Shown here: positions 2,427-24,546 of the stretch, in pieces
How positions within the stretch are numbered: position 1 is the stretch's first letter
How the letters are laid out: every line of letters begins with the position of its first letter
Source of the DNA: Escherichia coli
GTDB taxonomy: Bacteria; Pseudomonadota; Gammaproteobacteria; Enterobacterales; Enterobacteriaceae
Direction: 5' to 3' (one strand)
Assembly (NCBI RefSeq): GCF_003790525.1
Contig: NZ_CP033635.1
Length of the DNA stretch: 64,000 bases
Program-made: the position numbers and the translations under genes
Notes under the pieces: model-generated
Databases searched by the model: none
Told to the model about the DNA's origin: nothing
The model's input: only the letters and a program-made list of their open reading frames with translations

Positions 2427-3227
2427 TCACCACCAGGCGTGGAAGTGGTGAACCGGACCAATACCGTGACCAACTTCCAGCATGTCGGCCTGGGCTAACG
2501 CCGATGAAAGCCAGCTTTTTGCCTCCTGTACGGTGTCAGCCCAGTTTGTATGGCGCGGGCGTAGTGCAGCCAACGCCGCAGAGAGTGTACAACCAGTGCC
2601 GTGGGTGTTTTTGGTCATAATGCGCGGTGCGGTAAACCGTTGTTCACCCTCGCGAGTAAACAGCCAGTCCGGGCTTTGCTCATCATCCAGATGACCACCT
2701 TTCATTAGCACTGCGCCACAGCCCATCGCCAACAGCGATCGCCCTTGTTCCAGCATTTCCTGTTCGTTGCGCGCGTGTGGCGCGTCGAGCAAGGCGGCAG
2801 CTTCGGGCAAGTTTGGCGTTATTAATGAAACCTGTGGCAATAATCGACTGCGCAGCGTAGCAACCGCCGAAGGTGAAAGCAGCGGATCGCCGCTTTTTGC
2901 CAGCATAACAGTGTCGAGTACCACGTTTTGGATCTGATAACGTTGCAACCGTTCTGCCACCGCTTCAACAATATCGGTTTCCGCCAACATACCGATTTTA
3001 GTGGTATCGATTCGCACATCGCTGAACACCGAATCGAGCTGGGCGGCGACAAAATCAGGCTCAATGCGATACACCGACTGTACGCCACGGGTATTTTGCG
3101 CCACCAGTGCAGTAATAACTGAGCAACCATAAGCGCCAAGTGCCGAGAAGGTTTTAAGATCGGCCTGAATCCCCGCACCACCACTCGGATCAGTACCGGC
3201 AATCGTCAGAGCGTTAATTCGTTTCAT
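2427..3227 (-). CDS. thiD: hydroxymethylpyrimidine/phosphomethylpyrimidine kinase
   Basis: 266-aa ORF beginning [27 protein letters not shown] (ThiD signature); 4-bp overlap with thiM stop indicates an operon. Confidence 0.9.
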
Positions 3228-4012
3228 GCCTGCACCTCCTGCGTCAATTGCCAGAGCGCATCAAGGAAATGTGGAACAAAACTGCCTGGCCCCTCGCTTC
3301 TGGCGACAGCGCGTTCTCCGGCTTGTTTCATCCAGTGACAGGCAGATGCGACATTTTCCAGCATATCGCCTGGTAAGGCACAACAGGCAGCGACAACCGC
3401 CGATAATGCACAGCCAGTTCCTACCACTTTGGTCATTAACGGATCGCCACCGTGAATACCAATGATACGATGTCCATCGGTAACATAATCCACCTCGCCA
3501 GTGACCACGACGATTGCGCCAGTTTCCCGTGCCAGTGTTTGTGCAGCGGGTATCGCGTTAGCTGCGGCGTCAGTGGTATCCACTCCCCGTCCGCCATTAG
3601 CAATGCCAGCTAATGCCATGATTTCCGAAGCATTACCACGTATCGCTGCCGGTTTAAAAGATAAAAGTTCATGACAAAAATGGCGGCGATAATCGAGCGC
3701 ACCCACCGCTACTGGATCAAGCGTCCAGGGTGTTTGAGAGCTTTTTGCTTGCTCAACGGCAGCACGCATCGCCTGTGCGCGTGGCTGCGTCAGTGTGCCA
3801 ACGTTAATCAACAAGGCACTGGCGATAGCCGCAAACTGACTGGCCTCTTCGGTTTCGATAACCATCGCTGGCGATGCACCGAGCGCCAGCAAGGTATTGG
3901 CGGTAAAGGTTTGCACCACATCATTGGTCATGCAGTGCACAAGAGGGGAATGTTGGTGAAAAAGGTGTAACGCGTGCGCAGATTGCGCTGAACCCAGCAG
4001 GTCGACTTGCAT
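3224..4012 (-). CDS. thiM: hydroxyethylthiazole kinase
   Basis: 262-aa ORF, ThiM-like throughout; immediately downstream of a TPP riboswitch. Confidence 0.9.
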
Positions 4013-4155
4013 AGTTTGCTCCTGCCATAACGTGAAGAAGCAATGACCTGGTGGTCCGTGACTTCCCTACGCTGGCATTATCCAGATCAGGTGATACGGG
4101 TATTTCTCAGCCTTCACGCAGAAGGGCACCCCGAGTCGTTTGGTTGCGATGATAA
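4013..4155 (-). promoter_or_regulatory. TPP (THI-box) riboswitch in the thiM 5' leader
   Basis: Minus-strand sequence reads ...CGGGGTGCCCTTCTGCGTGAAGGCTGAGAAATACCCGTATCACCTGATCTGGATAATGCCAGCGTAGGGAA..., the classical thiM THI-box aptamer, directly upstream of the thiM start. Confidence 0.85.
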
Positions 4156-4234
4156 ATCGCAGAGGAGGATGGTAATGTCCAGCGCACGCGTTGTAAACGA
4201 GGAAAAACGGCAGTTTTACAATCGCGTTAATAAA

Positions 4235-4507
4235 TTATTTGATATATGAATCCAGCACCTTCAGAACGACATCCAGATCTTCTTCACGTTTTAGCTCATC
4301 CCCCTGGTGAACGATGTGTTCCGTCAGATGACCTTTAATCACTTCCCGCATCAGACCGTTTACCGCGCCACGGATAGCAGCAATCTGTTGTAAAACTGCA
4401 GCGCATTCGTGCGGCTCGTCGAGCATTTTCTTGAGCGCCACGACCTGGCCCTGAATCTTACTGGCACGCGCTTTCAGTTTCTGTTTATCACGGATTGTAT
4501 GAGACAT
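4235..4507 (-). CDS. rcnR: Ni/Co-responsive transcriptional repressor (CsoR/RcnR family)
   Basis: 90-aa [24 protein letters not shown]...; divergent from rcnA. Confidence 0.9.
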
Positions 4508-4555
4508 GGCAACACCTGGTTAACAAGAATATGAAAAATCATAGCACTATTAATC

Positions 4556-4590
4556 TACTGGGGGGTAGTATCAGGTACTGGGGGGGAGTA
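4556..4590. promoter_or_regulatory. tandem RcnR operator sites (TACT-G6-N-AGTA) in the rcnR-rcnA divergent promoter
   Basis: Sequence TACTGGGGGGTAGTA (4556-4570) and TACTGGGGGGGAGTA (4576-4590) lie between the divergent rcnR and rcnA starts; matches the known RcnR recognition motif. Confidence 0.7.
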
Positions 4591-4627
4591 GAATCAGATT
4601 GCCGAATTAATACTAAGAATTATTATC

Positions 4628-5452
4628 ATGACCGAATTTACAACTCTTCTTCAGCAAGGAAACGCCTGGTTCTTCATCCCCAGCGCCATCTTACTTGGTG
4701 CGCTTCATGGCCTGGAACCAGGGCACTCAAAAACGATGATGGCGGCGTTTATCATCGCCATCAAAGGCACCATTAAACAGGCGGTGATGCTCGGACTGGC
4801 AGCAACCATTTCGCATACCGCGGTGGTCTGGTTGATTGCCTTTGGCGGGATGGTGATCAGTAAGCGCTTTACTGCTCAATCAGCAGAACCGTGGCTCCAG
4901 CTGATTTCCGCAGTGATCATTATTAGCACCGCGTTCTGGATGTTCTGGCGTACCTGGCGCGGCGAACGCAACTGGCTGGAGAATATGCACGGGCATGATT
5001 ATGAGCATCATCATCACGATCACGAAGATCACCACGACCATGGACATCATCACCATCACGAACATGGCGAGTATCAGGATGCCCATGCACGAGCCCATGC
5101 CAATGATATTAAACGACGCTTTGATGGTAGAGAGGTCACCAACTGGCAAATTTTGTTATTTGGCTTAACAGGTGGTCTTATCCCCTGTCCGGCAGCAATT
5201 ACCGTGCTGTTGATTTGCATTCAGTTGAAAGCCCTGACACTGGGCGCAACACTGGTCGTCAGTTTCAGCATTGGCCTGGCGTTAACGCTGGTCACCGTAG
5301 GCGTTGGCGCAGCAATCAGCGTTCAGCAGGTCGCAAAACGCTGGAGCGGATTTAACACTCTCGCTAAACGCGCCCCCTATTTTTCCAGTCTGTTGATTGG
5401 CTTAGTTGGTGTGTATATGGGCGTACATGGCTTCATGGGCATAATGCGATAA
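4628..5452 (+). CDS. rcnA: nickel/cobalt efflux permease
   Basis: 274-aa membrane protein with a histidine-rich loop (HDYEHHHHDHEDHHDHGHHHHHEH). Confidence 0.9.
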   Translation: MTEFTTLLQQGNAWFFIPSAILLGALHGLEPGHSKTMMAAFIIAIKGTIKQAVMLGLAATISHTAVVWLIAFGGMVISKRFTAQSAEPWLQLISAVIIISTAFWMFWRTWRGERNWLENMHGHDYEHHHHDHEDHHDHGHHHHHEHGEYQDAHARAHANDIKRRFDGREVTNWQILLFGLTGGLIPCPAAITVLLICIQLKALTLGATLVVSFSIGLALTLVTVGVGAAISVQQVAKRWSGFNTLAKRAPYFSSLLIGLVGVYMGVHGFMGIMR

Positions 5453-24348: not shown

Positions 24349-24517
24349 TATACTCTAAATAATTCAAATTGGTCCGATCCGGCGCAACGTCCCAATGGCC
24401 TGGATTATAAATCTCATTATCTTAATTGCAACGGGGTCCAGCCGTGGTTATAATTCGTTCGTTGGAACACGATGTTGCACAGGCTGTGGTGTTAGGCCTG
24501 AAAATAGTAAATAAAAG

Positions 24518-24546
24518 AACCTGCCTCACCAGCAGGTTTTTTTATT
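24518..24546 (+). terminator. intrinsic terminator about 170 nt downstream of yehK
   Basis: Hairpin CCTGC-CTCACCA-GCAGG followed by TTTTTTTATTT. Confidence 0.65.

Follow-up and report, generated by a model that had tools for sequence, protein, structure and literature searches.

What occupies the spacer between rcnR and thiM in Escherichia coli, and how does it control the genes that follow? We addressed this question in a stretch of 64,000 nucleotides of contig NZ_CP033635.1 (RefSeq assembly GCF_003790525.1), hereafter called the window, where the track of open reading frames leaves the spacer blank. The original prediction had placed there, at 4013-4155 on the minus strand, the TPP riboswitch of the thiM leader, as an RNA element that the ORF track does not capture, and had proposed a scan with the Rfam model RF00059 as its check. 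We ran cmscan on the whole window against Rfam 15 with gathering thresholds, and obtained three matches in all. The sole TPP match is on the predicted strand and in the predicted place, with a score of 71.2 bits for a gathering score of 54.3. The alignment spans the model in full length (positions 1-105 of 105), with an E-value of 5.1e-12 that refers to both strands of the 64 kb and 4227 families. The features of the locus are listed in Table 1.

Table 1. Features of the thiM locus. Positions are those of the window, except in the last three lines, where they are those of loci in other genomes.
Feature	Position	Strand	Evidence or remark
thiD, HMP/HMP-P kinase, second gene of the operon	2427-3227	-	TIGR00097, 362 bits (cut-off 204.95)
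thiM, hydroxyethylthiazole kinase	3224-4012	-	TIGR00694, 341 bits (cut-off 256.4); AUG at 4012-4010
thiM codons 20-34, region of Rho-dependent termination	3911-3955	-	Coordinates derived from PMC5499598; identical to MG1655
Shine-Dalgarno (SD) region AGGAGCAA	4016-4023	-	Core GGAG at 4019-4022, nt 126-129 of the literature
Anti-SD UUGCUUCU	4036-4043	-	Core CUUC at 4037-4040, nt 108-111 of the literature (PMC1920254)
TPP riboswitch aptamer (THI element)	4047-4143	-	RF00059, 71.2 bits; RefSeq annotation
Switching strand GGGAAGUCA	4059-4067	-	3' strands of P4 and P1 if TPP-bound; partner of the anti-SD without TPP
GAAATACCCGTAT, putative attB	4094-4106		Inside the aptamer; unoccupied in the window
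5'-terminal leader hairpin, GCGAU/AUCGC stem	4145-4161	-	Predicted; outside the Rfam model
Promoter-like site, TTTACA / 17-nt spacer / TACCAT	4169-4197	-	Sigma-70-like consensus scan alone
RcnR, upstream of the leader	4235-4507	-	NCBIfam; same strand as thiM
RcnA	4628-5452	+	NCBIfam
Locus occupied by the ~15-kb element, L003	3150-3170		
Locus occupied by the ~15-kb element, L005	34159-49500		
Locus occupied by the ~15-kb element, L006	19100-34280		

The genes around the match are those expected of this riboswitch. ThiM and ThiD were named by NCBIfam models of the equivalog type, both above their cut-offs, which bears out the claim that thiMD lie downstream. Their coordinates overlap by 4 nt, and this fits one operon. 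The gene order, rcnA / rcnR-thiM-thiD-yegX, is the one annotated in MG1655 and in a RefSeq genome whose leader is identical. On the minus strand, 34 nt separate the end of the aptamer from the thiM AUG downstream. The predicted interval takes in the aptamer and the full expression platform, down to the base that precedes the AUG. Outside of it are the predicted promoter, upstream, and a published Rho-dependent segment, downstream and inside thiM.

We also read the minus strand of positions 3800-4400 directly. Within the aptamer, helices P1 to P5 fall inside 4060-4137. Of the 22 pairs taken over from the Rfam alignment, 21 are standard, the remaining one being C-A, and the structure with P1, P2, P3, P4 and P5 evaluates to -17.1 kcal/mol. 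The P3a hairpin, which is optional and variable in the RF00059 model, is absent from the cmscan alignment of the aptamer. Both the ligand-pocket motif CUGAGA that follows P3 and the ACCUGAUC..GG.UAAU.CC..GCGUAGGGAA arm equal the consensus letter for letter, in the alignment as in the direct reading, and the ACCUGAUCUGGAUAAUGCCAGCGUAGGGAA arm agrees with the consensus in the cmscan alignment. In the RefSeq genome with the identical leader, the annotation "TPP riboswitch" is on the same 97 nt as the Rfam match. The score, the helices, the motifs and the gene context confirm that this element is a TPP riboswitch. We put at about 0.97 the probability that the thiMD mRNA has its 5' leader, with the thiM TPP riboswitch, in the region from 4013 to about 4162 on the minus strand.

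The aptamer had been described as matching the classical one almost base for base, which understates the resemblance. Direct comparison showed that the whole 222-nt spacer between rcnR and thiM (4013-4234) is identical to that of E. coli K-12 MG1655. The two sequences are identical from 4507 down to 3777, with the first difference at 3776, and between rcnR and the end of thiD they differ at 13 of 2081 positions, all in the coding region of thiMD. The K-12 riboswitch has the same neighbours (rcnR upstream, thiM-thiD-yegX downstream) and the same predicted alternative pairings, with no difference within the leader. The element of the window is therefore the textbook riboswitch itself, and it was rightly called known biology: its sequence is that of the K-12 copy used in the textbook experiments. 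We take the K-12 thiM aptamer to be the one crystallised with TPP in 2006. The binding of TPP by the MG1655 thiM RNA and the ensuing conformational change are experimentally established (PMC1920254; PMC5499598), and are expected to hold for the identical sequence of the window. The leader is also widespread in the species. Of 5426 complete E. coli genomes, 5424 contain a match to a 311-nt query spanning it; for 4727 of these, 80% or more of the query is covered at a single place. Among the matches listed, every one spanning the aptamer bears a "riboswitch" annotation.

Upstream of the aptamer, the promoter-like site has 9 of 12 matches to the consensus, in a scan that found 3 sites in a region of 800 nt where 1.2 are expected. 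This predicted site implies that transcription of the leader would start near 4162. The hairpin predicted at the 5' end of the leader is seen in the free fold as well as in the fold where the aptamer is enforced. On the minus strand, the stretch 4198-4234, which separates the stop codon of rcnR (4235) from the promoter-like site, showed no terminator-like structure. Hence, transcription of rcnR may read through into the thiM leader.

To describe the expression platform, we folded the RNA from 4162 to 3983 twice, once freely and once with the aptamer pairs of Rfam enforced. In the enforced fold, UUGCUUCU (4043-4036) pairs with AGGAGCAA (4023-4016), and the SD has a mean pairing probability of 0.99, up from 0.54 in the free ensemble. 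In the free minimum free energy fold, the anti-SD region (4042-4035) pairs with the GGGAAG.CA of the aptamer (4067-4059). These positions can be related to the literature by subtracting the published nucleotide number from 4148, and the switching strand thus corresponds to nt 83-86 (PMC1920254). Chemical probing without TPP found nt 71-86 paired with nt 108-125, the anti-SD with nt 83-86, and the SD at nt 126-129, and the SD was modified solely when TPP was missing (PMC1920254). Our alternative pairings agree position by position with this probing, with one discrepancy left. The SD is still 0.54 paired in the free ensemble, through weak alternative contacts, so the contrast obtained in silico is partial. 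Taken together with the probing of the identical sequence, the folds argue for a translational platform that would sequester the SD by means of mutually exclusive pairings.

An unconstrained minimum free energy fold of 3990-4170 was discarded, and the folds that begin at the predicted start near 4162 were preferred to it. It began upstream of the likely transcription start, and in it the SD was paired with a CCUCC that is probably in the promoter. The unconstrained fold of this region is no more stable than that of shuffled sequence (z = -0.72), and a thermodynamic prediction alone would thus have missed the thiM element. Stabilities close to those of shuffled sequence are usual for bistable switches.

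These elements can be assembled in a mechanism. At low TPP, the anti-SD region (4023-4042) would be paired with the aptamer's 3' half (4059-4077), the SD would stay free and thiM would be translated. When TPP is bound, the formation of P1 to P5 would release the anti-SD, which would pair with the SD region and block the binding of the ribosome. The untranslated thiM mRNA would then be exposed to RNases and to Rho, with termination in codons 20-34, such that thiM and thiD would fall together. Our computations showed what the aptamer is and where it lies, which genes surround it, the identity with MG1655 and, in silico, the two exclusive pairings; TPP binding, the accessibility of the SD and the Rho step come from experiments on the identical MG1655 sequence. 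We regard a two-state SD switch followed by a step of Rho termination and mRNA decay as almost certainly the overall mode of action.

The original prediction called this riboswitch translational. This stands for the primary level of control, since the SD switch was reproduced by constrained folding. It does not stand for the sole level, because Rho termination and mRNA decay follow (PMC5499598; PMC11487190). One might have supposed that the riboswitch acts on the initiation of translation alone, with no part at the level of transcription or of the mRNA. The leader is indeed devoid of sites resembling intrinsic terminators, early work described strictly translational control, as recounted in PMC5499598, and fusions that comprise only the leader give translational control only (PMC11487190). 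Yet, transcriptional fusions with at least 34 codons of thiM are repressed by TPP (PMC5499598; PMC11487190), the mRNA-level effect requires at least these 34 codons (PMC11487190, in summary), and the mRNAs of thiM and thiD both drop with TPP (PMC5499598; PMC11487190). In MG1655-derived strains, Bastet et al. mapped the Rho-dependent termination triggered by TPP-induced translational repression between codons 20 and 34 of thiM, and reported that TPP may be sensed during as well as after transcription (PMC5499598). The window equals MG1655 across the Rho segment, and the published data thus concern an identical sequence. Control of translation initiation alone is therefore very improbable. The control of thiMD in the window is expected, from this identity, to be translational first, with a dependent layer of transcription termination and mRNA decay that reaches thiD.

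Related systems differ in how this second layer is reached. The tbpA (thiB) and thiC riboswitches of E. coli, which share the aptamer class and the ligand of thiM and precede different operons, also couple translational repression to control at the level of the mRNA (PMC11487190). In thiC the target of Rho is within the riboswitch domain and in tbpA 12 codons suffice, whereas the coding sequence required in thiM spans 34 codons (PMC11487190). The terminator-type TPP riboswitches of Bacillus and other Firmicutes belong to the same aptamer family, RF00059, and have a platform made of an intrinsic terminator and an antiterminator. Given the common aptamer class, one could imagine that the thiM leader attenuates transcription by means of an intrinsic terminator, as many TPP riboswitches of Bacillus do. 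However, no site with a stem and a T-run is present in 3900-4700 on either strand, the sequence that follows the aptamer holds the anti-SD/SD pairing instead, and the absence of a Rho-independent terminator is also reported in PMC5499598. Attenuation of this type is excluded because there is no terminator.

The idea of a fortuitous or decayed resemblance, with a conservation due to something else, such as the ATG-started 68-aa ORF that overlaps the element at 4043-4249 on the plus strand, is excluded by the E-value (5e-12 over the full-length model) and by the identity to an experimentally characterised sequence; that ORF is unannotated both in MG1655 and in the RefSeq genome with the identical leader, and such sizes are common by chance, the first 8 kb being overlapped by 32 ORFs of 60 aa or more. 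The ORF, antisense to the riboswitch and to the thiM promoter region, is probably spurious.

The locus is not uniform across the species. In strain ST648, similarity to the window breaks off within the aptamer, and a gene for a tyrosine integrase follows directly. More generally, 76 of the 5426 complete E. coli genomes, of diverse origin, have an element of ~15 kb inside the aptamer, with a junction identity of 90-100%. The two junctions of the element have (AA)GAAATACCCGTAT in common, which corresponds to 4094-4106 in the window. In ST648 the annotated genes of the element are an integrase, an HTH regulator, a primase, an SSB, a major capsid protein, an HK97 prohead protease, a portal, a head-tail connector, an HNH protein and the small and large terminases, with thiM-thiD at the far end. 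The gene order is the same in the SMS-3-5 element, and in both RefSeq annotates neither a tail nor a holin gene. Capsid-forming PICI (cfPICI) are defined by an integrase, a regulator, a primase, a capsid, a protease, a portal, a head-tail connector, an HNH protein and the two terminases, small and large, in ~14 kb, and by the absence of tail and holin genes (PMC10085698). The annotation names of the ST648 and SMS-3-5 elements list all the cfPICI genes and neither tail nor holin, in about 15 kb. Going by annotation names alone, the element would thus fit a cfPICI satellite.

The chances seem roughly even that a family of capsid-encoding phage satellites of ~15 kb has its attachment site, empty in the window, at 4094-4106, with a riboswitch as the target of integration in the manner of tRNA genes. 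A literature search of incomplete coverage found no paper linking thiM to the integration of satellites. If this reading is true, the aptamer is split wherever the site is occupied; its 5' half and the thiM promoter would be directed into the integrase gene, and thiMD, with only the 3' half, would lose its promoter and the sensing of TPP. In the occupied genomes, the thiM promoter, followed by the aptamer's 5' half, immediately precedes an integrase gene that points the same way. The remnant next to thiM consists of the 3' half only and scores 35.1 bits, under the gathering score; RefSeq annotates no riboswitch at this remnant in ST648 and SMS-3-5. A simple consensus scan, which gives a weak negative, found no promoter-like site at all in the 850 nt that precede thiM in ST648. 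When the split leader of ST648 is folded, the anti-SD still pairs with the aptamer remnant (0.94), and the pairing of the SD (0.64-0.77) results from ad hoc contacts and depends on the assumed 5' end.

A second variant was found in O157:H7 strain PV15-279, where an insert of ~2.2 kb (L002, 730-3003) lies between rcnR and the aptamer, with a junction that corresponds to 4146 in the window. This junction is common to 468 of the 5426 genomes. Everything upstream of the equivalent of 4146, including the promoter-like site of K-12 and the 5' hairpin, is replaced by this insert, whose coding content is one outer membrane protein, one hypothetical protein and an HTH-like fragment. The aptamer and the expression platform, with its SD switch, are unchanged. 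The same type of consensus scan, again a weak negative, found no promoter-like site in the orientation of thiM in the upstream sequence of this variant. The split by the satellite-like element and the upstream replacement suggest that E. coli strains differ naturally in the way thiMD is driven and controlled, or in whether it is at all. The verdict for the riboswitch of the window is independent of both.

Elsewhere in the window, the plus strand of 24468-24543 has a full-length match to the OrzO-P antitoxin sRNA (RF02083, 99.9 bits for a gathering score of 60), which indicates a zor/orz type I toxin-antitoxin locus. A full-length match to the Peptidase-S11 RNA motif (RF03039, 72.8 bits for a gathering score of 34.8), on the minus strand of 44971-45051, is a candidate cis-regulatory element.

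The riboswitch of the window is already known, real and ordinary, and it brings no new biology because its sequence is identical to that of the most studied copy. Its value is one of correct annotation, as a real cis-regulatory RNA fills the stretch between rcnR and thiM that the ORF track left blank. For E. coli, it explains how abundant TPP shuts off thiMD, which serves the salvage of thiazole and pyrimidine for vitamin B1. The mobile elements that split the aptamer or displace the promoter in other lineages of E. coli could be of modest interest for research on the choice of integration sites and on how riboswitch control is lost in nature.
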